Below are positions 660 to 29,254 of a DNA stretch of 40,199 nucleotides, piece after piece (within the stretch, counting starts at the first letter, position 1; the number at the start of each line of letters is the position of its first letter). Position numbers and translations under genes: made by a program. Below the pieces are notes generated by a model. It made no database searches. It worked only from the letters and a program-made list of their open reading frames with translations, and had not been told where the DNA came from. This DNA is from a virus (taxonomy: Duplodnaviria > Caudoviricetes), in the IMG/VR virus record IMGVR_UViG_3300032272_000036, positions 1 to 40,199 of that record; one strand, written 5' to 3'.

Positions 660-1334
660 TTGAAGAATTTTTACGAACTATTTTTCCATACTATACGCCA
701 CTCTAGCAAGGCGGACCTTGAGTCGTTTAGGCGATACATCAACAACAATATTACCTCTGAGATAAAGCTAAGAGGCAAGAGAGGTGACGATGTAAAGCAG
801 AAGCTAAACGAAAGCAACTCAGTTTTGCCAATCCCATCCGGAAAGAAAAAATATACCCAAAGAATAAAATACATAGAATTTGTTTTAAATCAAAAGTGGG
901 AATACCTTTATTCTGGTGGTTCTTATGACGACTCTAAGGATTACTATGTCTATGCTCACGTTGACCCACTGTCAAAGGATTACAACCTTAAAGATAGACT
1001 AAACATTGTAGGTTTGCCTTTTTATATTGGCAAAGGAAAGGGTAATAGAGCTTGGGACCTGAACCGTAATCAAGGCCATGACGTAAGAATAAAATCAGTT
1101 CTCTCTAAAGGCTACGGCCCTTCCCATATAGTTAACATCGTTAGAAAAGGATTGTCTGAGGTTGAAGCGTTAGCCTTAGAATCTCAACTAGTTTATGTGT
1201 TCAGGACAGTATATGAGAATCAACAACACGGATTGCTTTATAATATTGATACAGGGAAAAGACCAGATTTCGAGGCTATTTCAGAAGTACCAGACAGGAA
1301 GCAATGTATCATCCGGAGAGGGCAGCAGTCGTGA
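660..1334 (+). CDS. GIY-YIG (LEM-3-like) endonuclease
   Basis: YYVYAHVDP...PFYIGKGKGNRA...LSEVEALALESQLV...LYN motifs; GAGG before a TTG start. Confidence 0.75.
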   Translation: MKNFYELFFHTIRHSSKADLESFRRYINNNITSEIKLRGKRGDDVKQKLNESNSVLPIPSGKKKYTQRIKYIEFVLNQKWEYLYSGGSYDDSKDYYVYAHVDPLSKDYNLKDRLNIVGLPFYIGKGKGNRAWDLNRNQGHDVRIKSVLSKGYGPSHIVNIVRKGLSEVEALALESQLVYVFRTVYENQQHGLLYNIDTGKRPDFEAISEVPDRKQCIIRRGQQS

Positions 1335-2035
1335 TAGGCTGGATCAAAGTCCATAGAGAATTACAAAACCACTGGGTGTTTGAAAATCCAGAACATCTGA
1401 AGGCATGGTTGACTATCATCATGGAGGTAAATCATACCGACCATAAAGTTGCGATAGGTGGAAAGCTATTCGAGTGCAAACGTGGTGAAAGTTTAAAGTC
1501 ATTGGACACATGGGCAAGGCTATTTGGTAAGTCGTGGAACAAATCGAAGGTTAGAAGGTTTTTCAAACTTCTCGAAACTGATTCAATGTTAGTCACTAAA
1601 AACGAATCAAAAACGACACGGCTAACAGTATGTAATTACTGCAAATACCAGTCAGAGCGAAACGCAGATGAAACGCAAGTGAAACGCACACGAAACGGAA
1701 GTGAAACGCAAGTGACACCAAACAACAATGATAAGAAGGTTAAGAATGAGAATAATGATAAGAAAGAAGCTGCAAAGCGTGTGATTGACCACCTAAACGA
1801 AAAAACATCCAAGAGATTTAAAAAAGTAGAAACAAATCTTTCACTGATTGTTTCAAGGATGGCAGAGGGATTTTCTGAGGACGACTGTATAGTGGCAATT
1901 AATAATCAAGTCGTTGCATGGGGGAATGATGAAAAGATGTCTGCTTTTCTCAGGCCACAAACATTGTTCTGTAAAAGCAAAATCGATGGGTATGTAAATA
2001 ACGAGCCTAAAAAAACTGGAGGGTCAAGGTTTTGA
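1331..2035 (+). CDS. phage replication initiator (lambda O/DnaD-like N-terminus, Phg_2220_C-like C-terminus)
   Basis: GWIKVHR N-terminal motif, LTVCNYCKYQ, C-terminal VIDHLNEKT...LRPQTLF..SKIDGYVN; GTG start overlaps the upstream stop; helicase lies directly downstream. Confidence 0.85.
   Translation: MIGWIKVHRELQNHWVFENPEHLKAWLTIIMEVNHTDHKVAIGGKLFECKRGESLKSLDTWARLFGKSWNKSKVRRFFKLLETDSMLVTKNESKTTRLTVCNYCKYQSERNADETQVKRTRNGSETQVTPNNNDKKVKNENNDKKEAAKRVIDHLNEKTSKRFKKVETNLSLIVSRMAEGFSEDDCIVAINNQVVAWGNDEKMSAFLRPQTLFCKSKIDGYVNNEPKKTGGSRF
1659..1713 (+). repeat. iteron array, probable replication origin
   Basis: five tandem 11-mers GAAACGCAGAT/GAAACGCAAGT/GAAACGCACAC/GAAACGGAAGT/GAAACGCAAGT inside the initiator gene, followed by an A-rich tract. 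Confidence 0.8.
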
Positions 2036-3252
2036 AAGAAACAGAACAAGCATTAATAGGGGCAATGATCGGAGACCCAAGCTGTATTCCTTCTGTTATT
2101 GGAATAGTAAAAGCTTCTGACATGGAGACAGAGAAAGGATATTTTGCGTTTGAAGCAATAGAAGAGCTTTTTCGTGAAGGGGCTGCAATTGATCCGGTAA
2201 CTGTTGGTACTAGTCCTGGAGTTGATTTTCTTTACGTCACATCATCGACAAGTATAGGGTTCTGGACTAGCGCAACACAGTATGCAGTAGAGATTGCAAC
2301 TGCATCAAAAATAAGAAGGATGAAAGACGGTTTAAACAACCTGATATCATGCAAGAAGGCAGAAGATATTTTGCGCGGGATAACTGATATCTACAACAAT
2401 GAGTCTGGAGGGAAAGGAAAGGAGCCTGAAATAGTAGATGTCATTGGCCGTTTTGACGCTCACGTAAAAGCCAACATTGCCCGCGGGTCGACTGGACTTG
2501 CTACCGGAATACAACGACTAGATAACTCAATGATTTATTACGTTAGCGGGCAAATTTGGGCTTTAGGCGGGTACACATCGACAGGTAAAACTGCCATGAT
2601 GGTGCAGATGATTGTTAACTTGTTCATGGCAAACAAAAAAGCAAGGGTTTGTGTCATTGCCACAGAGATGACAGAAGAACAAATGGTGGCAAGGATTTTG
2701 GGTAACATGACAGGTATTTATTCACAGAGGATTCTTGCCGGTGACGTGTGGCCAACAGACCAGGAAAAGTATTCAAAAGCATATAGTCAATTAAAATCGT
2801 GGAACCTTAAAATACACGATGATATAAATGAGCTTGCTGATATTGAATCTACAGCAAGAAGTCATGCAATGCGCGGGGGAATCGATGTCTGTTTTATTGA
2901 TTATGTTCAGAATTGCCATGTAAAAGGAATTGACAACTCGTACATGGAGCAGAAAACACTTGCTACAAACATTCAGCAGCTTGCGAAGACAACGAATTCG
3001 ACTATGGTGTGTTTAAGCCAAGTGAGCAACGCAGTAGGCCGTGGTGATGTCGGAACGTTTGAGTTGAAGGGCGCTGGTGAGTGGGCTGCTGTAGCAGATG
3101 TGGGAATGATGTTGAAACGTGGTAAAATTGATGAAAGAGAGTTATTGCTTGATGTTCCAAAAAATCGCCACGGAGTAAAGCCAAGTGTCATTTTTAAGTT
3201 CAGCAAGAACTACTCAAACATGGTTGAGATACCAGAGGACTCACCAATATAG
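2032..3252 (+). CDS. dnaB: replicative DNA helicase, DnaB-like
   Basis: Walker A GGYTSTGKT, ATEMTEEQM, FIDYVQ, LSQVS, KNRHG. Confidence 0.9.
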   Translation: MKETEQALIGAMIGDPSCIPSVIGIVKASDMETEKGYFAFEAIEELFREGAAIDPVTVGTSPGVDFLYVTSSTSIGFWTSATQYAVEIATASKIRRMKDGLNNLISCKKAEDILRGITDIYNNESGGKGKEPEIVDVIGRFDAHVKANIARGSTGLATGIQRLDNSMIYYVSGQIWALGGYTSTGKTAMMVQMIVNLFMANKKARVCVIATEMTEEQMVARILGNMTGIYSQRILAGDVWPTDQEKYSKAYSQLKSWNLKIHDDINELADIESTARSHAMRGGIDVCFIDYVQNCHVKGIDNSYMEQKTLATNIQQLAKTTNSTMVCLSQVSNAVGRGDVGTFELKGAGEWAAVADVGMMLKRGKIDERELLLDVPKNRHGVKPSVIFKFSKNYSNMVEIPEDSPI

Positions 3253-3287
3253 GCAAAAGCAAAGCATATTGAGCGTTTAATCAAGGA

Positions 3288-3401
3288 AAAGAACAAGTTT
3301 TCAGGTAGGATGGCTGGTTGCAGCGAATTTTTATGTGAGGAAATTATTATGGCAAAAATAGAATGTGTTGCAAAAAATACGATGAAACGTGTTGTTAACT
3401 C
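3288..3401 (-). repeat. degenerate attC-like site (array 1, site 0)
   Basis: GTTAACTC(3394-3401) is the exact complement of GAGTTAAC(3597-3604) at the gene end; AAC at 3292; arms decayed. Confidence 0.45.
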
Positions 3402-3603
3402 AAGTAAAAAACAAATGACATTTCCGTGGGCTGTTTTTTTGGTTGTTGTTATGACAATAGCATACGCCTACCATTGCGAAACTGGCGACAAACTAAGCGG
3501 ATTTTTCATTTATTTCTGCGCAGTTGTTGGATGTCTTTGTGTGTGGTCGATAGACACAAAAAATTATTATTACGTTAAGTACTTAAAAAGTAAAGAGAGT
3601 TAA
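3349..3603 (+). CDS. small membrane protein, cassette cargo
   Basis: GAGG RBS at 3337; two hydrophobic segments; stop TAA overlaps the TAAC core. Confidence 0.65.
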   Translation: MAKIECVAKNTMKRVVNSSKKQMTFPWAVFLVVVMTIAYAYHCETGDKLSGFFIYFCAVVGCLCVWSIDTKNYYYVKYLKSKES

Positions 3604-3662
3604 CGCTGAGGCAACTGGTTGCGTGGCAGTTTCAGTAATCCATGTTTAGAGTTTTATTATAC
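3598..3662 (-). repeat. attC-like site (array 1, site 1)
   Basis: + strand AGTTAAC GCTGAG GCAACTGG...T CCATGTTTAGA GTTTT ATTATAC. Confidence 0.7.
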
Positions 3663-3681
3663 ATTTTTGGAGGTAAAAAAC

Positions 3682-3924
3682 GTGTGCGAATGCGAAGAAA
3701 AAGACTGTGAATACAAAGAAGGTAAATTATACTGGCACGAAGCTCTTGATAGAGCCCATGTTGCTTGTGACCACTTTTACGAGTATGTGCAACAGCATAT
3801 AGCGGTGCAGCATGACGAGGCACTTGAAGAAGCTGCAACGGCTGTCACTGATGCTATGCGGGATTTTTATCAACTTGTTGGCCGCAAATCATACGATTTT
3901 GACCAAAGGGACGGAGAAGTATAA
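3682..3924 (+). CDS. hypothetical protein, cassette cargo
   Basis: GGAGG RBS at 3669 and GTG start; HEALDR motif; stop lies in TAAC. Confidence 0.7.
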   Translation: MCECEEKDCEYKEGKLYWHEALDRAHVACDHFYEYVQQHIAVQHDEALEEAATAVTDAMRDFYQLVGRKSYDFDQRDGEV

Positions 3925-4117
3925 CGCTGAGCTCAATTGCCCCAAGTGGCTTAAGGAGAAGTACGATGGCAATATGTGAACACAAAAGCAAATGTGAAAA
4001 TTATACAAGCGAATGTAATAGGCTGGCCCACCCTTTTATGAACGCAAAGAAAGGGTGCTTGGAATTACCAAGCAAAAAACCGCTGACCTTGGGGTCGATT
4101 GAAGCGCATTGTTCTAT
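3919..4117 (-). repeat. long attC-like site (array 1, site 2, 199 bp)
   Basis: GTATAAC GCTGA GCTCAATTG CCCAAG...CTTGGG G T CGATTGAAGC GCATT GTTCTAT; loop contains the RBS and ATG of the next gene. Confidence 0.75.
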
Positions 4118-4280
4118 TGATTGGGCTCTTTTTACGGATAAGCGCCCAGAGATAGGAGAGTGGATATTAGCATACACTAAAGGCAGAACACCACAGACAT
4201 CTTTCCACACGATTAAATATTATAAAGGTGACGAAACTCAATATACCCACTGGGCTTCATTGGAAGCGCCAAATCAATAG
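3966..4280 (+). CDS. DUF551-like domain protein, cassette cargo
   Basis: C-terminal W...DKRPE.G.WIL...THWASLEAP pattern; AAGGAG RBS. Confidence 0.65.
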   Translation: MAICEHKSKCENYTSECNRLAHPFMNAKKGCLELPSKKPLTLGSIEAHCSIDWALFTDKRPEIGEWILAYTKGRTPQTSFHTIKYYKGDETQYTHWASLEAPNQ

Positions 4281-4331
4281 AACGCTTGGATAAATGGCGA
4301 GGAACGAGTCCAATTAATTATTTTGTTGGTT
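4277..4331 (-). repeat. attC-like site (array 1, site 3, 55 bp)
   Basis: ATAGAAC GCTTGG ATAAATGG CGAGGAACGAG T CCAATTAAT TATTTT GTTGGTT. Confidence 0.8.
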
Positions 4332-4350
4332 TACGACAAGGAGCGAGAAA

Positions 4351-4554
4351 ATGACTGATACAGAAAGAGTTAAGAAGGCAATAGACTTCGCAGTAGAATG
4401 GGGAGGGGTAGACGGGGAGCACCATAAGGATTGGTGTATTGACCAAATGGTAAGGATTTTAGCAGGCGATGAATATGACAATGTCGTGAAGGACGCGTGC
4501 GCAGGAGAAGACGGACCTGATACGTTTGGCTGGGATTGTGGAATAGCGCCATAG
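4351..4554 (+). CDS. hypothetical phage protein, cassette cargo
   Basis: AAGGAG RBS; GGVDGEHHKDWCIDQMVRIL...WDCGIAP resembles a common small phage family. Confidence 0.75.
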   Translation: MTDTERVKKAIDFAVEWGGVDGEHHKDWCIDQMVRILAGDEYDNVVKDACAGEDGPDTFGWDCGIAP

Positions 4555-4556
4555 TA

Positions 4557-4688
4557 AACCAACGGTTGAATTAACTGGTTTGCGGACTTAGCGCAACCAA
4601 GGAGAATATAGCAATGAGTTATGAAAACAGTAACCAAGTTCCAGGAACCGACGCTGCCCGCAAATCCACGTTGAATGATTTGTTATAT
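4557..4688 (-). repeat. attC-like site (array 1, site 4, 132 bp)
   Basis: AACCAAC GGTTGA ATTAACTGG TTTGCGG...CCGCAAA T CCACGTTGAAT GATTT GTTATAT; extrahelical T and G on the + strand. Confidence 0.85.
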
Positions 4689-5054
4689 GTTTATTCTGGG
4701 AGGTGTAGGCAGTGTGAGGTAGGGCTGCCAACTGGTTTAAAAGATGACGCTGGAAACAGATTAAGAACCGGCGATATTGTAATGAGCTATACCGTTGACT
4801 CTTTTGGGGTGGCGAATTTCGATGGGCTGACGGTCGTGATAGCTGACCAGTGGCAGACATATAGCGACGGGAGTCATGTGTTACAGGAAGATAAGGCCAC
4901 CCCTTTTGTGATGGGGATAAAAAATGTGGATTTAGAGCTAGAGACAGGGGTTTACCCCGATCACGTATGGCGGGTGCGAAGATTGAAGGCATACGAAGAC
5001 GTTGTTGATGGTGAACACTGGAAAGATTTTGGCTTCAGTTTCAAGTCCATATAA
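4614..5054 (+). CDS. hypothetical protein (YopX-like TGLKD..G..L..GDIV segment), cassette cargo
   Basis: AAGGAG RBS inside the attC loop; stop lies in TAAC. Confidence 0.7.
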   Translation: MSYENSNQVPGTDAARKSTLNDLLYVYSGRCRQCEVGLPTGLKDDAGNRLRTGDIVMSYTVDSFGVANFDGLTVVIADQWQTYSDGSHVLQEDKATPFVMGIKNVDLELETGVYPDHVWRVRRLKAYEDVVDGEHWKDFGFSFKSI

Positions 5055-5181
5055 CGTTTTAAATCACGGGATTTTTGCAATTAAATCACAAAACGAGGAA
5101 CGAAGAAATGACCGATGATAACACAATAGACGAAGAACGAAGCCAGGACTGCAAAAATTCCGGTGAATTGCCTTGTTATAC
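5049..5181 (-). repeat. attC-like site (array 1, site 5, 133 bp)
   Basis: ATATAAC GTTTTA AATCACGGGA TTTTTGCA...TGCAAAAA TTCCGGTGAATT GCCTT GTTATAC. Confidence 0.8.
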
Positions 5182-5455
5182 ACGATGCAAGGTAAAAGCG
5201 TTGAATGTTTCCAGTGATATGGTTCTCGTTGATTATTCTGTCAGCCACAACAATGGGACAACCACAGTTGAGCAGTCTATGAGATTGGTAAAAGAGCGCG
5301 GAAAGTGGAAAGCAGAAATTCAATTATTTGATTTTCCAGAACAGGATACACCAGATCGTGCGGCAACTAAACTTTCTGAATGGCTAGGTAGATTGAGCTT
5401 GGCGATAGCTGGTGGGGAGTGCTCCAATATCTACCTGGATGATCTTGGCGTATAA
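5108..5455 (+). CDS. hypothetical protein, cassette cargo
   Basis: GAGGA RBS and ATG inside the attC loop; stop lies in TAAC. Confidence 0.7.
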   Translation: MTDDNTIDEERSQDCKNSGELPCYTRCKVKALNVSSDMVLVDYSVSHNNGTTTVEQSMRLVKERGKWKAEIQLFDFPEQDTPDRAATKLSEWLGRLSLAIAGGECSNIYLDDLGV

Positions 5456-5472
5456 CAGTGTTAATAAGTGGA
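5452..5472 (-). repeat. array-terminal attI-like site, copy 1
   Basis: ATAACAGTGTTAATAAGTGGA; near-identical to 9170-9190 and 12417-12437. Confidence 0.65.
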
Positions 5473-5541
5473 CAACTTTTCCACGCTTAACTTGGTTTTT
5501 TAGTTGATAAGTGGAAAATACAAAATAACAAAGGGCATAAA

Positions 5542-6141
5542 ATGACTTTCCAGACGAAGATATTTGTAGATGGAGATGACGGAGAAAAGTTATCATGTGC
5601 TGAAGCTGCTGCAATTTTAAGTGGCGAAGGTAAAAAGACGACAGCAAAACAAATACGCAACCATATTGCAGGGAAAAATATTACGACGATCGACGGATTG
5701 CGTAATCATAGAGAAAAAGTTGAGAGAAAACTAAAGTCATTTAAGCCAAAGCCACCGATAAGGGGAGACGATGGAAAAGTTATCAGTAACGCTGATGTTG
5801 TTAACACCCTAAAAGTAGAGGGGTATACCGCGTATGAGCAAAAGGTGAGCTATTACCGTGATCGTCATGGCGCTAAATCGCTCAACGATCTGAGACGGTT
5901 ATTTGGCGAGAATGTAAGAGTTGATAGTCCTCGTGGGATATTGTCTGGAGAGTTTGTAAAAATTGAAGATAAGATTTACAAAGTTGCAGAGGTCTTTGCC
6001 AACGGAGCCGGCCGACCTGATTTAATGTGCAACCCGGTAATGACCAATGGACAAGTTTTGACACGTACAACGAGATATATTAGCGGCACTGAAAAATGGC
6101 GTAAACTGAAGTATGACCCAAAGGTTTTTATTAAAAAGTAA
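5542..6141 (+). CDS. hypothetical basic protein, possibly DNA-binding with an internal repeat
   Basis: 199-aa K/R-rich ORF; two GDDG-led segments. Confidence 0.65.
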   Translation: MTFQTKIFVDGDDGEKLSCAEAAAILSGEGKKTTAKQIRNHIAGKNITTIDGLRNHREKVERKLKSFKPKPPIRGDDGKVISNADVVNTLKVEGYTAYEQKVSYYRDRHGAKSLNDLRRLFGENVRVDSPRGILSGEFVKIEDKIYKVAEVFANGAGRPDLMCNPVMTNGQVLTRTTRYISGTEKWRKLKYDPKVFIKK

Positions 6142-6159
6142 AAAAATGTGTTTTTACTG

Positions 6160-6188
6160 TTGACTTATATGTCCAATGGGTATATATT
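6160..6188 (+). promoter_or_regulatory. sigma70 promoter with overlapping imperfect palindrome (operator candidate)
   Basis: TTGACT(6160-6165)-17 bp-TATATT(6183-6188); TATATGTCCA-A-TGGGTATATA spans the spacer. Confidence 0.65.
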
Positions 6189-6245
6189 GTAGGTAAAGGA
6201 TGAGGCAATAAAGCCTTAAGCGACAAAGACAACAGGGAGAACATT

Positions 6246-6464
6246 ATGAAAGCTACAATTAACCCAGGAGCAGAATTTGATTGGACTGGAAAAACATGGG
6301 AAGAATTAGCAGTTGCCTACGGGATGGACGAGAAATCAATGAGAGAAGAAGCTATTGAGTTCCAGAATTGCGAAGGGTTTGACGACGAAGGTAATGAATC
6401 AGATGATTTACACGAGTGGTTGACTAATGAAAATGCCGCATTTGTAGACAATACACCTTTTTAA
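6246..6464 (+). CDS. small acidic hypothetical protein
   Basis: GGGAG RBS; 72 aa, very D/E-rich. Confidence 0.7.
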   Translation: MKATINPGAEFDWTGKTWEELAVAYGMDEKSMREEAIEFQNCEGFDDEGNESDDLHEWLTNENAAFVDNTPF

Positions 6465-6512
6465 CATAACCAACGGGGCTTGGAAACAGGCCCCACAACA
6501 AGGAGAGAGACG

Positions 6513-6704
6513 ATGAAACTTTATATTTTTAACAGAGAAACAATGAAAGTTATTGCTACAGTCGAAGGAGACAGGAACATTGACTGTGAGAGAATAGCAG
6601 AGGAAAACGGATCTTGTCCGGACGAGACAGTAGGCTGGACATACTCTCCTGGGTTTGGGTTTGAAGGTGGACTTGAGGAAAATGACAAAGTCGTAGAGCT
6701 TTGA
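6513..6704 (+). CDS. small acidic hypothetical protein
   Basis: AGGAGAG RBS, ATG at 6513; preceded by hairpin GGGGC...GCCCC (6475-6494). Confidence 0.65.
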   Translation: MKLYIFNRETMKVIATVEGDRNIDCERIAEENGSCPDETVGWTYSPGFGFEGGLEENDKVVEL

Positions 6705-6705
6705 A

Positions 6706-6903
6706 ATGAAAAATTTAACGATTGCAGAATTAAGAGGCAAAACAGGACTCACTCAGAAGGAATTCGGGAAACTGCTAGGCATGACACAGCCAGCAGTTAA
6801 CCGGATCGAGTCCGGTAGGCGCACTGAGACTAAAGGGCACCTCGCAACCTTGGCTGCGCTTGATCTTATTATCGAGAAAGGGATGCTCGATTTGTTGTTG
6901 TAA
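6706..6903 (+). CDS. XRE/Cro-family HTH regulator
   Basis: LRGKTGLTQKEFGKLLGMTQPAVNRIESGRR. Confidence 0.9.
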   Translation: MKNLTIAELRGKTGLTQKEFGKLLGMTQPAVNRIESGRRTETKGHLATLAALDLIIEKGMLDLLL

Positions 6904-6942
6904 AAAAATATAACGCCGTTTTAATAACGAGGAAAGATTATT

Positions 6943-7104
6943 ATGAAAAAGTATGAGAGCGTAAGGATGGCCGTTTTAATCCAGTTGATGTCAGAAATCA
7001 CCGGAAGCCAAGAAGGTGTGATTCTGGAGGCATTACAAGGCCATTGTATTGACGAAGAAGACGCTGGTGCTATTAAGAGAGAACTTGACGAAATCCAAGA
7101 GTGA
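6943..7104 (+). CDS. hypothetical protein (53 aa, MKKYESVRMAVLIQLM...)
   Basis: GAGG RBS; below the ORF-track cutoff. Confidence 0.5.
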   Translation: MKKYESVRMAVLIQLMSEITGSQEGVILEALQGHCIDEEDAGAIKRELDEIQE

Positions 7105-7226
7105 TATCTGGCAACCAAACGGCAATCTCACCAGTGCCGCCACCGGATGAGTAAAAATAACGCCAGCGTTCCAATAATCCGGTGCAACGACTGATCAAAA
7201 CAGCAACCAAGGAGGAAATATACACC

Positions 7227-7321
7227 TTGCAAAAACATGAGCGATAGAGTATAAAGTAATAGTCGCTTCATCTCCCTCCTAAACCCCATTGCCACCTGTG
7301 ATTCTCGGCAATGGGGTTTTT
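7227..7321 (+). ncRNA. candidate small RNA (promoter, anti-SD-like segment, intrinsic terminator)
   Basis: TTGCAA(7227)-17 bp-TATAAA(7250); CTCCCTCCT; 13-bp perfect stem 7281-7293/7307-7319 plus Ts. Confidence 0.4.
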
Positions 7322-7407
7322 CTCGTTTTGACCAAAAAATACATAGAATGCCAATTATTTTGTCAATTACATTGTAAATCTAAATATAATGTGTTATTTT
7401 ATATATT

Positions 7408-7587
7408 ATGAAAGAAGAAATTAAGCCAAGTAAATATTGTAAGCAGCAAGGTTTCAAAACTCTAACTGAATGTTCTAGAGTAGTGGACGTTAAAGTCCCA
7501 ACGCTTAGGAATTGGAGCAAATACCACCCTGTTCGTTTTAGGGCTGTTGTGGCTGGTGGTGTGTTTATTAAAAATAATAACCAATAA
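7408..7587 (+). CDS. small HTH-like protein (59 aa)
   Basis: PSKYCKQQGFKTLTECSRVVDVKVPTLRNW pattern; below the ORF-track cutoff. Confidence 0.55.
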   Translation: MKEEIKPSKYCKQQGFKTLTECSRVVDVKVPTLRNWSKYHPVRFRAVVAGGVFIKNNNQ

Positions 7588-7788
7588 TCATGGACAAAAG
7601 AATGGAAAAGACAGATCTCCATATGTATTTTTTTTGCTTGCCTTGGGTTTAGTGTGGTGGGTTTACTTGTTCCTGTTTTTAGTGGCGAGCCGTTTTTAGC
7701 CGCGGCGTTTGTAATTGCTGCGCTAATAGACAATGAAAAATAATTAGGGTTTGTTTTCAGGGTGAAGGATCGTGGTGAGGAGGGTGTT

Positions 7789-8109
7789 ATGAAAAGAGAA
7801 GTGAGAATTATTGTTTTTGAAGATGATGATATTGAAGATGATATTCCGACTGCTCCTGCCGAATTTATGGCGTTTTGGCGAGAGAAGATAGACTTAATCC
7901 CCCAGGAATTTATGGACACGGCCAATATAGATCTTGTAGGTGATTCGCGATGGGAGAGCGGATACCTTGAGGCTAGAATCAGCTTTACCAGGCTGGAGAC
8001 TGACGAAGAAGAGGCGGCAAGGTTGAAAAAAGAAGAAGACCGCAGAAAATTTATAGAGAACCAAGAGCTTTGTCAACTTGAAAATCTCAAGGCTAAGTAT
8101 GGGGTCTAA
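7789..8109 (+). CDS. hypothetical protein
   Basis: GAGGAGG RBS; stop lies in the TAAC of a degenerate attC-like site. Confidence 0.7.
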   Translation: MKREVRIIVFEDDDIEDDIPTAPAEFMAFWREKIDLIPQEFMDTANIDLVGDSRWESGYLEARISFTRLETDEEEAARLKKEEDRRKFIENQELCQLENLKAKYGV

Positions 8110-8192
8110 CCCAATAATAATCCGTGGCCCTCAATGTATATTCCAGTAGGGTCATTGACGTTCTAGCCATCCAGGTAATTTTGTTGTTAGCT
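8104..8192 (-). repeat. degenerate attC-like site
   Basis: GTCTAAC CCAATA ATAATCCG TGGC...GCCA T CCAGGTAATT TTGTT GTTAGCT; same layout, weak L-box pairing. Confidence 0.4.
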
Positions 8193-8306
8193 GAATATAT
8201 AAACAATATTATGCTATTGGAAAAATGATTATGAAAAAAGAAGAAGTTTTAAAAACTTGTGCAAAAGTAGTTATTGCTGGTGTCACAACCGTAAGAAGGC
8301 ATAAAA

Positions 8307-8900
8307 ATGACAAAGGATAAGAAGAAGAAGCCTGATTGGGAAGCGATATGGTGTGATTATCGTGCTGGTGTTTTGTCAGTAAGGGAAGTAGCAAGAGTCC
8401 ACAGTGTAGACGCTTCGTATTTGTTGCGTAAAGCCAATAAGTTAGGTGTTAAAAGAGACCTTACTAAAAGGGTAAAAGAGGCGGTAAATACTAAATTAGT
8501 CCACGGATCAGTCCACACTCCAGGGACAAGCGACGATGATATTGTCGAAAAGGAGAGCTCTAGAGTTGTTGATGTTGTCATGTTGCATAGAAAGGATATT
8601 CAGGATACACGGGAAGCAGTCAGGATATTGAGGGATCAGCTTATTGAGTCCACGCTGAACATTACTGAGATTGAGGAGGAGATTGTTAAAGAGACTGAAG
8701 ATGATAGAGGGGCAAACCGCAGGAACCAGATGTTGAAGGCAGTCTCATTACTTTCAAGCTCTTCAATTATTGGAAATCTTACTAATGCCATATCAAAGCT
8801 GATTCCCCTTGAGCGTCAGGCACACAACCTGAACGACGAAGAGGATACAGAAAAGAAACGTATTTTTGTTTCTAGGGTGAAGGCTGGGAGTGATGGTTGA
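8307..8900 (+). CDS. terS: terminase small subunit
   Basis: PDWEAI..DYRAG.LSVRE.A HTH, ..RDL.., LIPLERQA; upstream of terL. Confidence 0.8.
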   Translation: MTKDKKKKPDWEAIWCDYRAGVLSVREVARVHSVDASYLLRKANKLGVKRDLTKRVKEAVNTKLVHGSVHTPGTSDDDIVEKESSRVVDVVMLHRKDIQDTREAVRILRDQLIESTLNITEIEEEIVKETEDDRGANRRNQMLKAVSLLSSSSIIGNLTNAISKLIPLERQAHNLNDEEDTEKKRIFVSRVKAGSDG

Positions 8901-8980
8901 CGCCGTTATAAGCTGCCAGCCGACAAACTGACAGCTAAACCCCTGACCTCATTCTGGTCAGCTTTATAAAATTGTTATCT
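8895..8980 (-). repeat. attC-like site (array 2, 86 bp)
   Basis: GGTTGAC GCCGTT ATAAGCTG CCAG...CTGG T CAGCTTTAT AAAATT GTTATCT. Confidence 0.8.
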
Positions 8981-8999
8981 TTAAAATCAAGAGGATATT

Positions 9000-9173
9000 A
9001 TGGAAAAGTTTACAGTTAAACACTACATAGACCATGCTCACCCATCCATAAAAGGTTTTGGTTTTGATGGTCTTGTTGTCGGGGAATACAGGGAAGAGGC
9101 CGAAGAGTTTATTGAATTTATTAATGACATTCTTGATAAGTGCGAAAAGGCAGGGGTTAGCATAGAAAGATAA
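9000..9173 (+). CDS. hypothetical protein (57 aa, MEKFTVKHYIDHAHPSIKGFGFDGL...), cassette cargo between terS and terL
   Basis: GAGG RBS; stop lies in TAAC; below the ORF-track cutoff. Confidence 0.7.
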   Translation: MEKFTVKHYIDHAHPSIKGFGFDGLVVGEYREEAEEFIEFINDILDKCEKAGVSIER

Positions 9174-9190
9174 CAGTGTCAATAAGTGGA
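9170..9190 (-). repeat. array-terminal attI-like site, copy 2
   Basis: ATAACAGTGTCAATAAGTGGA. Confidence 0.65.
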
Positions 9191-9203
9191 AAATAGTATT
9201 TAG

Positions 9204-10478
9204 ATGATGAACAAACCGCAACTGAAATACGACTACGAACTCAAAATATGTGAGGACATGTACAACCCTATCTACCTCCCGTATTTAGACCAGTCAAGGT
9301 CAACAGAGATTTTTTACGGTGGTTCGTCATCAGGAAAATCAAACTTCATTGCACAGCGAACGATTGAGAATATCATGGAAGGCGGTCACAATTACCTGTG
9401 CTGCCGGAAGATGGGGAACTCGATCACCAAATCAGTATTCAACGAACTAACTAAAGCGATTTCGAAACTGAATGTTGGCCATTTATTTAACGCCGTCCCA
9501 TCCCAGGGTCACATAACTTGCGTAAACGGGTATCAAATATTATTTAGCGGCCTTGACGATGTTGAAAAAGTTAAGTCGATCACGCCAAAACTTGGCGTAA
9601 TTACAGACGTTTGGTGTGAAGAAGTGACAGAAATGTCTTACGCGGATATCAAGCAGCTGCGGAAAAGGTTGAGGGGGGTGGCCGTTTATGATGATCGCAG
9701 AATCCAAAAGCGCATAGTTATGACATTTAACCCAATTTACAAGACTCACTGGATCTATAAAGAGTATTTTGTCCCAATTGCCTGGAAGGATAACCAGAAA
9801 GAACACATTGACGAACGTCTTAGTGTTCTCAAGACAACCCACCTCGACAATGAGTTTCTCGATGACGAAGATCACTTGTTACTTGAAGAGGAAGAGGATG
9901 AGTATTGGTATCAAGTTTACACACTTGGAAACTTTGGTATACTTGGTGACGCAATCTTTACCAACTGGCGTACTGCAGATCTTTCAAAAATAAGTAAATC
10001 ATTCGACAGGATCAGAAACGGCCTTGATTTTGGTTATAGCTCTGACCCTAACGCTTACGTGCGGATGCACTACGACAAGCCTCACAAGAGAATATATATC
10101 TTCAAAGCATGGATGGCTAAAAAACTCACAAACCCAATGATTGCCGAAAAGCTCAAGCCTATAATTGGCAAGGAGCCAATCTTTTGCGACTGTGCAGAAC
10201 CAAAATCAATAGCAGAATTGCAAGCCGAAGGAATCGACGCTAGGCCGGTAAAAAAGGGCAAAGATTCAATCATGCACGGGATCAAGTGGTTACAAAAACA
10301 CGAGATCGTAGTTGATGAAGAATTGCAGCCAGTAATTAACGAGCTCAACACGTATCAGTGGAAAAAAGATAAAGACGGGAACGCGCTTCCAATCCCAGTT
10401 GGGGATGATGATTTTATTGACGCGACTAGATACGGAACAGAGATAGAACACACCGGATTCTTTGAGGGACTGGTTTAG
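9204..10478 (+). CDS. terL: terminase large subunit, PBSX family
   Basis: FYGGSSSGKS Walker A, VWCEE Walker B, TFNP, GLDFG, DCAEP, DDFIDATRY. Confidence 0.95.
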   Translation: MMNKPQLKYDYELKICEDMYNPIYLPYLDQSRSTEIFYGGSSSGKSNFIAQRTIENIMEGGHNYLCCRKMGNSITKSVFNELTKAISKLNVGHLFNAVPSQGHITCVNGYQILFSGLDDVEKVKSITPKLGVITDVWCEEVTEMSYADIKQLRKRLRGVAVYDDRRIQKRIVMTFNPIYKTHWIYKEYFVPIAWKDNQKEHIDERLSVLKTTHLDNEFLDDEDHLLLEEEEDEYWYQVYTLGNFGILGDAIFTNWRTADLSKISKSFDRIRNGLDFGYSSDPNAYVRMHYDKPHKRIYIFKAWMAKKLTNPMIAEKLKPIIGKEPIFCDCAEPKSIAELQAEGIDARPVKKGKDSIMHGIKWLQKHEIVVDEELQPVINELNTYQWKKDKDGNALPIPVGDDDFIDATRYGTEIEHTGFFEGLV

Positions 10479-10656
10479 GCCAGTAATGTTTATGTTGTGA
10501 AAGCTAAAATAATAAAGTTTCCAAACAAGAGACAACGAGAGCTGTCACTACTAAAAAAGCAACGATTACTTGATCAACAGTTTGATCTGGTGAATAGGAA
10601 GATTAATATCTCCAGGATCAAACGACGACAATAACCACCTATAAGGAGGGTGAAGT

Positions 10657-10890
10657 ATGTGCCACGAAAGATGTAAAAAGTGTGAGAATGTTGAAAACTG
10701 CATAGTAAAAGATAAAATCAGAAACCCTGGAATGTGTAATTTTTTCCTTCCTGCAGACAGCGAGGATGAACAGGGAGCGAGGGAATTTCTGGTTGATGTA
10801 CTTGATTCTAAATTCAACAACCATATTCTGGTTAAGATGCCGGGTGGTTTGGCTTGTGAGCTTGCAGGTTTTATTCAGAAACTTCAATAA
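10657..10890 (+). CDS. small Cys-rich hypothetical protein
   Basis: AAGGAGG RBS; CxxC-rich N-terminus. Confidence 0.6.
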   Translation: MCHERCKKCENVENCIVKDKIRNPGMCNFFLPADSEDEQGAREFLVDVLDSKFNNHILVKMPGGLACELAGFIQKLQ

Positions 10891-10973
10891 GTAGCGATTG
10901 AATTAAGCGGATGGCTAGTGAAGCCAGCTAAAACAGCAAAGTTTATTCCAGTTCGATTGAATACTGGTTGTGT
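10889..10973 (-). repeat. degenerate attC-like site (array 3, site 1)
   Basis: AGC(for AAC) GATTGA ATTAAGCGG...T TCGATTGAAT ACTG GTTGTGT. Confidence 0.55.
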
Positions 10974-10983
10974 GAGGTTATTT

Positions 10984-11181
10984 ATGTATACGTTAATTTT
11001 ATTTTTTATTGTGTGGCTTGTTTGGTTTTCCGTTGGATGTGCTGTTTTATCCTTCATTGACGATGAAAATAGCAGTTTGTTTAAGTGGGCCTCATCTTGT
11101 CCAATTCCGATTATAGGGTATCCGATGGTTGTAACTATGTGGCCTTTGTTGGCTTGGGCGTGGCTTCATAGGGAAGTCTAA
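10984..11181 (+). CDS. small membrane protein, cassette cargo
   Basis: GAGG RBS; two hydrophobic segments; stop lies in TAAC. Confidence 0.65.
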   Translation: MYTLILFFIVWLVWFSVGCAVLSFIDDENSSLFKWASSCPIPIIGYPMVVTMWPLLAWAWLHREV

Positions 11182-11262
11182 CGATTTAATCAGTGGTCCG
11201 CCACTGACTTGCAGATTTAATAAACTGGGTCTCTTCGTCTCCACTGAATTAACTTGTTGTAA
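11176..11262 (-). repeat. attC-like site (array 3, site 2, 87 bp)
   Basis: GTCTAAC GATT TAATCAGTGG...T CCACTGAATTA ACTT GTTGTAA. Confidence 0.75.
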
Positions 11263-11326
11263 TGTATAAGGATATTATGATTATAGAAAAAAATAAAGAT
11301 CAATATGAAACCAATGAGGTAAAAAA

Positions 11327-11512
11327 ATGGGACATCCGGCGAATGACAAAGCAACTTTAGAAGCTATTTTTAAGGCATTTAACCACGCTAAAGATTCTGG
11401 AGAGGATACTGTAGTGCAGACATGCAAAGGAGATGTAAGATTCAAGCCCGGTTTGACTGGGGTTAAAGTGCAAATAGAAGGTGCCAAAACAGCTAGAAAC
11501 AATTCTAGATAA
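11327..11512 (+). CDS. hypothetical protein, cassette cargo
   Basis: GAGG RBS; stop lies in TAAC. Confidence 0.6.
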   Translation: MGHPANDKATLEAIFKAFNHAKDSGEDTVVQTCKGDVRFKPGLTGVKVQIEGAKTARNNSR

Positions 11513-11564
11513 CGCGCCAATAACTGTCGAGCTTGCGAGTCCATGTTAATTGGACTTATTGGGC
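11507..11564 (-). repeat. attC-like site (array 3, site 3, 58 bp)
   Basis: 37/38 identical to 11951-11988 (ATAACTGkCGAGCTTGCGAGTCCATGTTAATTGGACTT). Confidence 0.85.
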
Positions 11565-11599
11565 GATTTGCCCGGAACCTTAATTTGAAAGGAAATATT

Positions 11600-11902
11600 A
11601 TGAGTGAGAAAGAAATTGAACAAGAGATCCAGGACAAAGGGTTGAACGCTCCAAGACTCCGCCCGGCAGATATCGACACCGTGATCGTTGGTGAGACCTT
11701 CACCACATTACCAAGCGGGAAGGCCATGGTCTGTGAGTTAACCCTTGCCAGTGGTTTTACCGTGCGGGGTGAATCGGCCTGTGTCAGTAAGGCGAATTTT
11801 GATGAGGGCATCGGCCAGAAGATAAGCAGGGAGAACGCACGAAATAAGGTTTGGGAACTCGAAGGCTACCGGTTGCAATGTGATTTGGCCCGTGGAATCT
11901 AA
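11600..11902 (+). CDS. N4 Gp49 / Sf6 gp66 family protein, cassette cargo
   Basis: IEQEIQDKGLNAPRL...GFTVRGESACVS..NFDEGIG...KVWELEGY signature. Confidence 0.85.
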   Translation: MSEKEIEQEIQDKGLNAPRLRPADIDTVIVGETFTTLPSGKAMVCELTLASGFTVRGESACVSKANFDEGIGQKISRENARNKVWELEGYRLQCDLARGI

Positions 11903-11936
11903 TTTTATCGGGCGGCAAGGTTGCAGAACTTTGACC

Positions 11937-11995
11937 GCCCAACGTTTGAGATAACTGGCGAGCTTGCGAGTCCATGTTAATTGGACTTGTTATAT
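11937..11995 (-). repeat. attC-like site (array 3, site 4, 59 bp)
   Basis: - strand reads ATATAAC...GTTGGGC (perfect GTTRRRY). Confidence 0.85.
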
Positions 11996-12016
11996 GCGTT
12001 TTTTACGGAGAACATT

Positions 12017-12208
12017 ATGAAATGGTTAAATTTTATACCTCTTGTTTTGTGGGCAATTGGTTTTTTATGCGCCACGGAATGGTCATTGCATCTTAGGCAA
12101 ATTGACGGGAGGGTGAGTGACCTTAAAACACAATCTGAAGCAGGAGCTAAACTGTGGCTTTATGGTTCAATACTGTTTTTGATTATCGGAATTTTATTGT
12201 CAATATAA
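12017..12208 (+). CDS. small two-TM membrane protein, cassette cargo
   Basis: GGAG RBS; stop lies in TAAC. Confidence 0.7.
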   Translation: MKWLNFIPLVLWAIGFLCATEWSLHLRQIDGRVSDLKTQSEAGAKLWLYGSILFLIIGILLSI

Positions 12209-12260
12209 CGTAGGATGTTCAACGGCGAGCTTGCGAGTCCGCTGTAACTTTTTGTTATCA
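12203..12260 (-). repeat. attC-like site (array 3, site 5, 58 bp)
   Basis: ATATAAC GTAGGAT GTTCAACGG CGAGCTTGCGAG T CCGCTGTAAC TTTTT GTTATCA. Confidence 0.85.
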
Positions 12261-12276
12261 AGCATAGAGGAAGAAG

Positions 12277-12417
12277 ATGATTAAATACTTCAAAGAATTA
12301 TTGACAACGCTGGTTAAGATTGAAAAACATCTGGAAAAGATATCAAAATGTGTAGCTGAAAAACATCATGGTCACGGTGACAGATTTAGTATTTCCACGA
12401 AACATTGGAATGATTGA
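12277..12417 (+). CDS. hypothetical protein (46 aa, MIKYFKELL...), cassette cargo
   Basis: GAGG RBS; below the ORF-track cutoff; ends TGA-TAAC. Confidence 0.6.
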   Translation: MIKYFKELLTTLVKIEKHLEKISKCVAEKHHGHGDRFSISTKHWND

Positions 12418-12437
12418 TAACAGTATCAATAAGTTGA
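12417..12437 (-). repeat. array-terminal attI-like site, copy 3
   Basis: ATAACAGTATCAATAAGTTGA. Confidence 0.65.
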
Positions 12438-12459
12438 AAGTTAATCACGCAATAACACT

Positions 12460-13179
12460 ATGACCCAAAAAATAACAATAGAAAAGCCAGATCACATAGA
12501 AGGAACCGCCGGAGCAAGAAAAGACTGGGCAGTGATAACCGGAAAAGAACTCACACTGAAACCAGCAGTGTTTCTTCACTCAAAAACCGGTGAATATTAT
12601 TGTCACCTCGTGGGCGGCGTGGCATATCCTGTTGCAACTGGGCAAGAGGTAAAGCCTGGAATTTTATTAATAGTTGGCATACAGAACGAACCAACTGTAA
12701 AATTCACCGTTCTCGAATCATATGAGGACAACAATGTTTTTAACCTGATTGAAAGAATGGTAACGTTGCGAAGAGATTACCTTTTTGGAAAAGATTCTCG
12801 TATCCTTCCGAACTGGTACGGCGATCAAGAAAAATATCAGACATTAATACTTAAAGCGTCAGAATCGCTTGAGAAACATAAAGGTAGTGAAGCTGGCCTA
12901 TACATTAAAGACACAGTTGATAGGAGAGAAAAGCACTGTTTCCCTTTGTATGTGCGTCAAATATTTAACGCATTGGAGAAAAAACAATTAGATATTAACG
13001 GTGACCGAATAGTTACCGGAGCACTACAGTCATTTCAACGAGAAGATGCGGAAAAAGGGGCACTTGACAATTTTCCGCTTGTAGGTTTGCTAGGCGGTAT
13101 GGTACACTCATTGCAGGTTGAAAGGCCCTGGCTTGAGGATGCCGATGGTGAGGGTACGGTTTTCAACGTTGAATTTTAA
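12460..13179 (+). CDS. hypothetical protein, possible terminase-nuclease (RNase H)-like fold
   Basis: 239-aa ORF; pattern of three strands, helix, W.GD, terminal helix (inference). Confidence 0.6.
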   Translation: MTQKITIEKPDHIEGTAGARKDWAVITGKELTLKPAVFLHSKTGEYYCHLVGGVAYPVATGQEVKPGILLIVGIQNEPTVKFTVLESYEDNNVFNLIERMVTLRRDYLFGKDSRILPNWYGDQEKYQTLILKASESLEKHKGSEAGLYIKDTVDRREKHCFPLYVRQIFNALEKKQLDINGDRIVTGALQSFQREDAEKGALDNFPLVGLLGGMVHSLQVERPWLEDADGEGTVFNVEF

Positions 13180-13278
13180 AAGTCATGATGGATAGAAACG
13201 GCTCGACTAAGTGGCCGGGTATCGGTAGTAGTCCTGATTGGCTAAAACTCTGAGGACTTAAATGTCTGGAGAAACAAA

Positions 13279-14475
13279 ATGTCAGTAGATAAATTAGTAG
13301 CAGTAATGTCTGGTAGGTCAACTTATAATGTCAGGGATGAAGACGACATGACATCCGATGACGCATTTGGAGTTCCGACTCAACAGAGCGTAAAGGCTTA
13401 TGCTGATGCCCTAGTGGTAGCAGGTTCGTCATCAACTCAGACACTAACAAATAAGACCTTGGATGATGCAACGTGCAAGTTCGCCGACACGGCAGACACA
13501 ACCAAAGACCTATTTGTAAGTCTTGGCGGAGCTACCACAGCGAAAACCATGACCATCATTTCGAGCCAAACAGACGATAGGTCGCTCACATTGCCTGACG
13601 CGACCGATACTCTGGTAGGTAAGGCAACAACCGATACACTAACCAACAAAACCTTAACAAGCTCAGTGTTGAACGCCGGAGTAAGTGGAACCGCAGTTCT
13701 CGACGAAGATACGATGTCTTCCGACTCTGACACTAAAATTGCCACACAGCAAAGCATCAAAGCCTATGTTGACACTCAGGTTGTAGCACAAAACATTTTC
13801 CTCCGTGGAGAGATAGCTGACATATCCAGCGCCGCAAGCACATGGGTCGTGTCCCCTGTGGCCGGTGACATTACCGGAATTACCACAGTTATTGATGGCG
13901 CTATCACTGTTGGTGACGCCGCTATTACTTTTGAGATTGGTGGTACACCAGTAACAGGCGGTGGAATCACAATTGCGTATTCAGGTTCAGCGGCAGGAAC
14001 CGTTGATTCTGCAACTCCCTCCGCAGCAAACACTGTAACGGCAGGGCAAGTAATCGAGATAATTACAGACGGCGGGTCTACTGACGCAGCAATGGCGGTT
14101 GTCACGCTTGAAATCACCCCGGCAGCAGCGGCCCCGAAGAAAGTTTATGTAACAGGAGAGATTGCAGACGTATCGACAGGTGCTTCCTCATGGGTGACTT
14201 CTCCAATTGCTGGTACAATCTCAAACTGGTGGAGTGTTATTGACGGTGCTATTGCGAGTGTTGACGCTGGGTTAAGCCTTGAGATTGCCACGGTCGCTGT
14301 GACAGGATCAGCTATCACCGTTGCATTCTCAGGGTCAGGTGCAGGAACAGTTGATACAGCTGCTCCAACAGCGGCGAATACTGTAACCGCTGGACAGGCG
14401 ATTGAGGTCATCACAGACGGGGCAAGCACAAACGCTGTTAAAGCTGTTGTCCTCCTGGAAATCACGGCGGCATAA
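13279..14475 (+). CDS. virion structural protein (fibre/decoration-like) with internal duplications
   Basis: two DED.M.SD....TQQS.KAY motifs, TLTNKTL repeats, two tandem ~110-aa Ala/Thr/Gly domains. Confidence 0.75.
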   Translation: MSVDKLVAVMSGRSTYNVRDEDDMTSDDAFGVPTQQSVKAYADALVVAGSSSTQTLTNKTLDDATCKFADTADTTKDLFVSLGGATTAKTMTIISSQTDDRSLTLPDATDTLVGKATTDTLTNKTLTSSVLNAGVSGTAVLDEDTMSSDSDTKIATQQSIKAYVDTQVVAQNIFLRGEIADISSAASTWVVSPVAGDITGITTVIDGAITVGDAAITFEIGGTPVTGGGITIAYSGSAAGTVDSATPSAANTVTAGQVIEIITDGGSTDAAMAVVTLEITPAAAAPKKVYVTGEIADVSTGASSWVTSPIAGTISNWWSVIDGAIASVDAGLSLEIATVAVTGSAITVAFSGSGAGTVDTAAPTAANTVTAGQAIEVITDGASTNAVKAVVLLEITAA

Positions 14476-14732
14476 TGGAAACACTGTATACCTTTTTGGC
14501 TGGCTGGCTCAGTACACTCTCAGGGGTGGCACTGGGCGGCTGGCTCGTGTACCGGACAAAGCGCGACCCTTATGATTCGTTGTTTTCAGCAAACGACAAT
14601 AATGGTGAAGTGTTCAATCTTGACGACGATCTTGCGCAGGACATTCCTATGCAGCAGGATATCCCGGAGCCAACAGCTAAAGCCCATAATGCTTTTATGG
14701 ATCAATTTGTGGAAGGGTTGGGTAAAAAATGA
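14475..14732 (+). CDS. small single-TM protein
   Basis: TAATG coupling; N-terminal hydrophobic helix. Confidence 0.7.
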   Translation: METLYTFLAGWLSTLSGVALGGWLVYRTKRDPYDSLFSANDNNGEVFNLDDDLAQDIPMQQDIPEPTAKAHNAFMDQFVEGLGKK

Positions 14733-15178
14733 CAGACAAAATACTATCAGCAAGGGGCGAACCGTTCAAACGCAAAGGCGATGCCCTGAACGCAATTAAA
14801 GACATGCCCGGTTACCATGTTGTAGAAGATGAAAACGGTTGCTATACAGGGGAGAAGGTGCAAAGTGTCAAAATCGCTGACTTAACACCTGATTACGAAT
14901 CTCCATGGTACGATATTAATTTCGGAAAAGAAGAAGAGAAAAAAAGTTACCCAACATCAGATGTAATTTGCCCTGGATGTGGGCAATGTTATCATTCGAC
15001 TACCGATGCCTACGACCCTGAGCGTTTTGCGAACCCTGCAATGATAGACCTGAAAGAGCCTTGGAAGGGCTGGGGTTGGGATAATCCGGTAAAAGATTTT
15101 TCAGCCGGATATGGGTGCATGGTTTGTCCTGATTGTGGTACGGCATTGGCTCCTTCTGGGAAGTTGAGGGTGAAGTGA
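14729..15178 (+). CDS. zinc-ribbon protein
   Basis: CPGC...CPDC. Confidence 0.7.
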   Translation: MTDKILSARGEPFKRKGDALNAIKDMPGYHVVEDENGCYTGEKVQSVKIADLTPDYESPWYDINFGKEEEKKSYPTSDVICPGCGQCYHSTTDAYDPERFANPAMIDLKEPWKGWGWDNPVKDFSAGYGCMVCPDCGTALAPSGKLRVK

Positions 15179-15300
15179 ACTGGATAGTAAAAACAATAAC
15201 TGACCTAATTGCTAGGCGTTTCTTCGGAAAGTTGACTATTGTTTTTGAAAATGGTAAAATAACACGAGCGATAAAAGAAGAATCTTTAAGACCTGAGTAG
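15175..15300 (+). CDS. YezD/DUF2292-like small protein (41 aa)
   Basis: RRFFGKLTIVFENGKITRAIKEESL pattern; GTGA overlap; below the ORF-track cutoff. Confidence 0.6.
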   Translation: MNWIVKTITDLIARRFFGKLTIVFENGKITRAIKEESLRPE

Positions 15301-15326
15301 TAAAACATATAGGCATTGGAACAACC

Positions 15327-15365
15327 AAGCCCACAGAGTGCAATACGCACCTGTGGGCTTTTTTT
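15327..15365 (+). terminator. intrinsic terminator upstream of the portal gene, overlapped by an alternative hairpin
   Basis: AAGCCCACAG-a-GTGC/GCAC-CTGTGGGCTT plus T-run. Confidence 0.8.
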
Positions 15366-15383
15366 GTGAAAAAAAGGGAAGAC

Positions 15384-17539: not shown

Positions 17540-17588
17540 CCGCCCTTCGCATCAGGGACACCCAGAAATGGCCCCAACGGAGTTAGAA

Positions 17589-19831: not shown

Positions 19832-19851
19832 TTCAACAAAAGGAGATCCAA

Positions 19852-29241: not shown

Positions 29242-29254
29242 GACAAGGTGAAAA

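Follow-up and report, generated by a model that had tools for sequence, protein, structure and literature searches.

This phage genome carries three rows of gene cassettes, each closed by an attI of bacterial type, and the integron integrase of the host likely inserts new units at these points. The window, that is, the whole stretch of DNA analysed, is virus record IMGVR_UViG_3300032272_000036 in full (G000), a linear sequence of 40,199 nt rated 73% complete by CheckV. Comparison at the level of sequence establishes the sites, their polarity, the identity of the attI, the AA|C borders of the unit and the empty sites in relatives. The arrangement works like an integron and has integron sites, but it is not a complete integron: phage genes, not intI, follow each attI in G000, and the cassette genes are inverted instead of lying on the top strand upstream of their attC and being read from Pc.

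attC sites in the small-gene region

A replication initiator and a DnaB-like helicase are encoded at 1304-3252, and family searches identified the terminase large subunit at 9204-10478 as well as a portal-like protein; the interval 3253-12460 is filled by small genes without families, all on the + strand. attC sites were sought with a box-and-pairing profile trained on bacterial attC only (18 sites, 19 having been found and one duplicate dropped). The profile admits GAC/AGC and ATT variants, which were chosen after the window had been seen, and its thresholds are our own; shuffles were run under identical rules. At a score of at least 15, it returned nine sites on the + strand of 3253-12460, none on the - strand and none in 60 dinucleotide shuffles. 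The remainder, 12461-40199, gave none on the + strand, one on the - strand and none in 12 shuffles, the single match (18975-19051, score 32) lying inside a probable capsid gene and being taken as a false positive. On a held-out Reinekea array, the profile made four matches in the expected polarity and none in the opposite one. The nine scored sites, preceded by a decayed one, are the following.

3598..3662, + strand: decayed attC, score 6.7; R' intact, L box unpaired, GTT of R'' changed
3919..4117, + strand: attC bottom strand, 199 nt, score 22; extra base A; crossover 3924|3925
4277..4331, + strand: short attC, 55 nt, score 16; the next gene starts past the site
4557..4688, + strand: attC bottom strand, 132 nt, score 21; extra G and C on the 3' arm
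5049..5181, + strand: attC bottom strand, 133 nt, score 46, the best; extra A and G; adjoins attI
8895..8980, + strand: attC, score 24; after the stop of a probable terminase small subunit; TGA|C replaces AA|C
11176..11262, + strand: attC, 87 nt, score 36
11507..11564, + strand: attC, 58 nt, score 22; GTT of R'' changed to ATT
11937..11995, + strand: attC, 59 nt; loop word common to bacterial attC
12203..12260, + strand: attC, score 38

Six of these (3919, 4277, 4557, 5049, 11176 and 11937) have an R' ending in AAC, an R'' starting with GTT, paired L boxes and spacers of 5-6 nt, and the deviations in the others are a 7-nt left spacer at 12203, GAC at 8895 and ATT at 11507. Extrahelical bases lie on the 3' (L'') arm at all nine, which is the bottom polarity on the + strand, and the box layout of 4557-4688 is that of the published attC aadA7 bottom strand. 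The three hairpins on which the original prediction was built (3919-4117, 4557-4688 and 5049-5181) thus stand, with R', L', L'' and R'' on the + strand; it overlooked the attC at 4277-4331 and the attI at the row ends, and its probable attC at 3288-3401 is dropped, being unscored by the profile. As it had also remarked, the 199-nt site lies beyond the attC range of 57-141 nt given in passages of PMC5027507. The 55-nt site at 4277-4331 falls short of that range, and the other seven measure 58-133 nt. Since 8 of 18 host attC measure 125-135 nt, the 132- and 133-nt sites are of usual length within the family. Two rows of neighbouring attC without an integrase, 3919-5181 and 11176-12260 (four sites each), qualify as CALINs in this incomplete record. 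The attC loop word has 25 genome matches, six of which are attC.

Folding gives a more mixed picture. Compared with shuffles, folding energy does not set the three hairpins at 3919, 4557 and 5049 apart from background (z -0.2 to -2.1), and log10 pfold is -3 to -6 at five of the nine window attC, with a host median of -0.75. pfold is higher on the + than on the - strand at seven of nine sites, and at 3919 its log10 is -0.8 on +, equal to the host median, and -2.3 on -. Several further candidates were rejected: 6908, 7112-7165 and about 10886 were unscored by the profile, 8104-8192, at a score of 15 but with no more than 5.5 of 9 pairs, is regarded as decayed, and 10617-10811 (score 16, 7 pairs) was removed by a 7.5-pair rule. 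The stretch 6900-8200 holds decayed attC-like pieces (6911, 7112-7200, 8104-8192) without attI, together with a long hairpin at 7155-7345 (z about -3).

Of 12 crossover points, 8 have a stop codon on the core and one more has it there as the second of two tandem stops; the upstream stop lies off the core at 4277, 4557 and 11937. A unit often ends in a TAA stop, since R' (RYYYAA|C) allows such a reading on the bottom strand. All eight TAA|C cores listed in the original prediction are in-frame stops; those at 5453 and 9171 are attI cores and not attC, and the one at 3601, where ORF 3349-3603 ends, heads the decayed 3598 site. Across the region, 12 of 23 hand-listed genes have a stop followed by C, compared with 6 of 30 elsewhere (Fisher p = 0.02), a modest signal when taken alone.

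attI copies and bacterial integron loci

The repeat at 5453, 9171 and 12418 has no 3' arm, and its 21-mer motif has three matches in the window against 0.04 expected. The extension of the host site is missing from two of the three copies, which consist of the 21-nt core alone.

5454..5518, + strand: attI copy 1; core 5454-5474 with partial host-like extension; crossover 5455|5456
9172..9192, + strand: attI copy 2, core only; directly ahead of the terminase large subunit
12419..12439, + strand: attI copy 3, core only; closes the row after the terminase

Among metagenome contigs, the motif has 52 matches in 51 loci, two of which are the window itself. An integrase starts 47-159 nt past the motif AAC in 11 of the 51, of which one integrase is stop-interrupted and several are near-identical, leaving about six lineages, and all seven integrases scanned pass the TIGR02249 cut-off. 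Loci with common sequence after AAC have unrelated sequence before it and, by our reading of the coordinates, locus L138 equals L101 plus one extra 812-nt cassette at the AAC point. In bacterial loci, the motif immediately precedes intI and the cassettes are on its opposite side; new cassettes enter at AAC, as the variable sequence before it, the constant sequence after it and the L138/L101 pair indicate. Judged by its sequence, the window repeat is an attI read on the bottom strand. Across 34 loci that we selected as bacterial, the top strand carries 65 of the 76 ORFs upstream and 19 of 19 attC matches are in the bottom polarity, none being in the other, which is the classical layout. The + strand of the window is the attC bottom strand and the window genes are inverted, as follows from the attI beside intI, the loop word common with bacterial attC and the extra-base polarity of the profile matches; the original prediction that the cargo genes run opposite to the classical orientation is borne out by the first two.

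Unrelated phages have the same attI core, base for base. A promoter role for the motif was rejected, the -35-like hexamer varying among copies, as was a terminator role for attI or attC, which are absent from seven terminator-like matches, a count equal to chance. Of 13 and 9 viral motif matches, the 9 and 5 that fall inside coding regions were treated as chance, and no match was found in cultured phage records. Some attI-bearing loci of bacterial type have classical cassettes and no intI in the fetched flank (L103, L113, L114, L124, L127, L134, L135 and L137), and further such loci occur in G127 (L146, L152), where one copy has intI and one does not, and in G249 (L147, L153). A single integrase acting in trans may already serve several dispersed attI sites in the hosts. 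In two other phages (L013/L125 and L111), attI stands ahead of genes of 640-660 aa without an NCBIfam match, which we take, by resemblance, to be GpA-type terminases.

Probable starts within attC loops

The cargo genes that bear on the reading of the loops, and others from the region, are given below.

3682..3924, + strand: cargo ORF, 80 aa; GTG start; stop TAA on the 3919-site core; no family
3966..4280, + strand: ORF, 104 aa; residues 1-50 attC-encoded, 51-104 a small domain found alone elsewhere
4351..4554, + strand: cargo ORF, 67 aa; own SD past the GTT box; stop off the next core
4614..5054, + strand: ORF, 146 aa; residues 1-24 attC-encoded; homologues mostly begin at the position of residue 24
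5108..5455, + strand: ORF, 115 aa; conserved part from the GTT box (residue 24); stop TAA on the attI core
9000..9173, + strand: cargo ORF, 57 aa; 75% homologue in an ordinary phage operon without attC
11600..11902, + strand: cargo ORF of the Phage_gp49_66 family (PF13876), by family search

The three long sites each hold, within the loop, an SD-like word and an ATG from which the frame crosses the 3' arm and the GTT box, as had been proposed: SD 3953-3958 and ATG 3966 (about 45 codons) in the 3919 site, SD 4599-4604 and ATG 4614 in the 4557 site, and SD 5095-5099 and ATG 5108 in the 5049 site. The proposed check, whether homologues lack the loop-encoded N-termini, came out positively for all three ORFs, in the case of 5108 on one homologue. 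The C-terminal domain of ORF 3966 aligns from residue 51, just past R'', and contains no Met, and residues 1-45 have a 47% match to a protein with a different C-terminus; a word search gave no relatives of this ORF, and none were found for ORF 3682. The 3919 loop thus contains a small mobile domain, which accounts for the 199-nt length of the site. The alignment of ORF 4614 with ten homologues begins at the GTT box, which is the exact start of five of them; two more start no further than two residues away, and three have other leaders. Two viral loci concur with a start at the GTT box, and the frame has no ATG from that box to residue 58. Two of the homologues (P0008 and P0011) have leaders that look like read-through of another attC family. 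Conservation of ORF 5108 begins at residue 24, in R'' (one protein homologue), and no credible viral locus was found for it. ATG 3966, 4614 and 5108 are best read as start codons, a reading drawn from alignments and loop signals. Loop starts of this kind would apply to three of the nine scored sites and are not the general rule; at the six sites shorter than 100 nt, the next genes carry their own SD past the GTT box. A phage locus with an ORF 4614 homologue (L079) shows hairpins after TAA|C at about 1905-1990 and 3240-3300 that look top-strand-like by eye, and from this locus classical polarity may be present in some phages.

The cassette unit and empty sites

One unit can be delimited at both ends.

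12207..12421, + strand: complete cassette; attC 12203-12260 plus ORF 12277-12417; 99% identical in phage locus L128

The identity extends over 215 nt, from AAC to the next AAC, with both flanks unrelated, and a viral scan gave no record with this cassette other than L128. In this one case, crossover at AA|C, as originally predicted, is supported, and the borders of the cassette common to the window and L128 also bear out a unit made of an attC and the gene downstream. The cassette borders were seen as loose ends in run X1, which is possibly the source sample and so not independent. No AA|C joints were seen in one DNA run, again possibly the source, and contigs cannot exclude such joints; among the sequencing runs listed as containing the sequence, none was an RNA run.

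Relatives of the phage show the sites empty. Where terminase identity is 82%, nothing separates the flanking genes to either side of the terminase; in the one with 87% identity, there is one small gene after the terminase, and attI, scored attC and PF00589 are all absent from that record, which is 95% complete.

The same layout in other phages

A bottom-strand attC row followed by attI recurs in L006, L010, L011, L013, L095, L107, L119 and L128. An ORF ends on the attI TAA at 8 of 12 phage-type copies outside the window versus 0 of 11 intI-adjacent loci, the copies without such an end being L097, L111, L128 and the second of L119; L107, L111, L119, L141 and L097 were classed as phage-type by gene content only. 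Four records, G405-G408, hold 17 attC at a score of at least 20 (G405 and G406 being covered to 40,000 of their 41,485 and 42,740 bases), and at 15 of the 17 the longer of the downstream ORFs is on the bottom strand. Ten show an in-frame stop on the core, two a loop start and three a start in R''. In G409, attI is present three times, and no attC reaches a score of 20. In the arrays of L006, L011 and L095, a third class of start occurs in which the ATG is part of R'' (GTT ATG). In L119, attI copies at 898 and 1817 flank a cytosine methyltransferase-like gene. In G406 (L170), both strands of 11680-18336 carry attC rows; every row shares the coding strand with its genes, and one converges on attI from the other side.

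Host, mechanism and alternative explanations

The enzyme is likely a host IntI, probably of Desulfobacterota, since no tyrosine recombinase (PF00589) was found by profile search in the record, 73% complete as it is. Of 401 genomes from the phylum that includes a Desulfobulbaceae MAG, 8 contain the attI motif with one mismatch allowed; two of these matches are chance-like, two have an adjacent intI (one truncated) and the rest are attI-like without intI in a 1.5-kb flank. One IntI cluster member is labelled Thermodesulfobacteriota. The motif search covered this one phylum, so the host assignment is not exclusive.

The unit consists of an attC followed by a small gene whose coding strand is the attC bottom strand. 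We propose that the IntI of a Desulfobacterota host, acting in trans during infection, would recombine a circular cassette, as its folded + strand, with the attI of the phage. Rows would take in new units at attI, and so at their downstream end, where the bottom-strand genes would come under the rightward transcription of the phage itself, and older, upstream sites would decay (3598, about 10886). Such upstream decay is in line with the scores, which peak next to attI in rows 1 and 3 (46 and 38), among few sites. In the long sites, the variable loop may have turned coding and would supply the SD, the start and 23-50 N-terminal residues, the short sites being plain spacers; at three sites, swaps would thus change the front ends of proteins as well as genes. 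Taken further, phages of Desulfobacterota would operate a parasitic integron, with copies of the host attI in core operons, host IntI acting in trans, exchange within a separate mirror-image cassette pool made from phage genes, and attC loops serving as start signals and swappable N-terminal domains; for this wider view, the chances appear evenly balanced. Against insertion by the host integrase stand the bare attI cores, low pfold at five of nine sites, several decayed sites, the incomplete genomes and the single cassette in common, which was found in one other phage and may come from the same source sample. The bare cores count here because direct repeats in attI1 favour attI x attC reactions, according to passages of PMC8946536.

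The alternative that survives best, and is still unlikely, is that these are relics: pieces of a host integron captured once, spread from phage to phage by general recombination and now non-substrates, with the genes being ordinary phage genes. Decay at 3598, 8104, 11507 and about 10886, the TGA|C at 8898, low pfold at five of nine sites and the truncated attI cores would all fit relics. General recombination does not, however, predict a 215-nt unit with only AAC common at its borders in the window and L128, and relics are also at odds with an attI core conserved base for base across unrelated phages and with the highest scores lying beside attI in rows 1 and 3. Somewhat less probable again is that cassettes and polarity are as we describe and the enzyme is a phage tyrosine recombinase encoded in the missing 27% of the genome. 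G000 is 73% complete, a distant terminase relative, provirus G414, carries a PF00589 gene, and all six attI-bearing phage records are incomplete (36-73%), which leaves room for such an enzyme; yet what follows each window attI is a phage gene and not a recombinase, PF00589 is found in none of the six (G405-G409, 36-68% complete, included), and the attI sequence matches that beside genuine IntI genes.

It is very improbable that classical host cassettes were inserted the wrong way round by top-strand (R'') recombination (Nivina et al. 2016). That route is documented, and in passages of PMC5027507 it also yields a gene on the attI bottom strand and a TAA|C junction, but it predicts the attC top strand on + and extra bases on the 5' arm, whereas nine of nine sites have them on the 3' arm, no site scores in the other polarity and the cargo has its homologues among phage genes. 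Terminators or chance hairpins in the gaps between small genes, for which the weak folding z-scores, the score-32 match in the capsid gene and the stop-then-C arrangement at 6 of 30 genes elsewhere could be cited, are the least credible of all, given nine sites observed versus none in 60 shuffles, a loop word and arms common to bacterial attC, and no site among the seven terminator-like matches, themselves no more numerous than chance.

Relation to known integron systems

The phage rows have much in common with integrons as treated in passages of PMC5027507: the R'/L'/L''/R'' boxes, the 5-6 nt unpaired spacer, the extra L'' bases on the bottom strand, crossover in AAC and insertion at attI. 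The phage differs in having no intI beside attI, three attI copies in one 40-kb record, bottom-strand genes that follow their own attC instead of preceding it, and one attC of 199 nt, against a published 57-141. A Pc upstream of attI would not be needed, because phage transcription runs towards attI. The same passages describe SOS control of intI, which might bear on the phage.

Clusters of attC without integrase (CALINs) have been reported in phage genomes by Qi et al. 2023 (PMC9892861), where IntI1 recombined five of six tested phage attC, a Shewanella prophage CALIN was headed by its own attI, and cassette uptake by phages was ascribed to illegitimate recombination. The rows in G000 are likewise integrase-less attC clusters in a phage genome; the main text of that paper makes no mention of bottom-strand genes, loop starts, stops on R' or multiple row-closing attI within core operons of a phage. 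Loot et al. (bioRxiv 10.1101/2022.09.11.507474, in part) report that IntI acts off-platform, that small integrase-less clusters (SALINs) may come from cassette insertion and that attI1 itself is not inserted into genomes at a significant rate; the target in that attG insertion is a GWT word, whereas the phage carries a conserved 21-nt attI. Synthetic attC in protein linkers (Nivina et al. 2020, PMC7439510) resemble the long sites in being read through as protein, with the difference that they were engineered, whereas here loop-encoded N-termini occur naturally on different C-terminal domains. The attC bottom strand on the lagging-strand template is the better-recombining orientation in passages of PMC5371416, and with bottom and coding strand coinciding in the phage, replication in the direction of transcription would put its sites on that template too. 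A literature library with few subscription journals yielded no paper on phage cassettes in inverted orientation or on trans use of an attI carried by a phage.

If the proposal is true, the integron, a bacterial device for adaptation and against phages, becomes a tool that phages use on themselves, and phage mosaicism gains a site-specific route. Host IntI, host attI, phage attI and a phage cassette whose borders are exact form a matched set, with which a standard laboratory assay could test the claim. The mirror layout, with gene starts at R'' and stops at R', and the cargo homologues in ordinary phage operons would also bear on how cassettes arise.

Other features of the record

Four repeats at 11-nt spacing lie inside the replication initiator gene (1658-1718) and are probably origin iterons. 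A 34-nt inverted repeat at 545-657 stands ahead of ORF 660-1334, which carries a GIY-YIG-like motif and has no Pfam match. The structural region contains two tandem paralogous gene pairs, at 19469-20217 and 28333-30109, and 31175-39550 encodes a protein of 2791 aa with an internally repeated domain.
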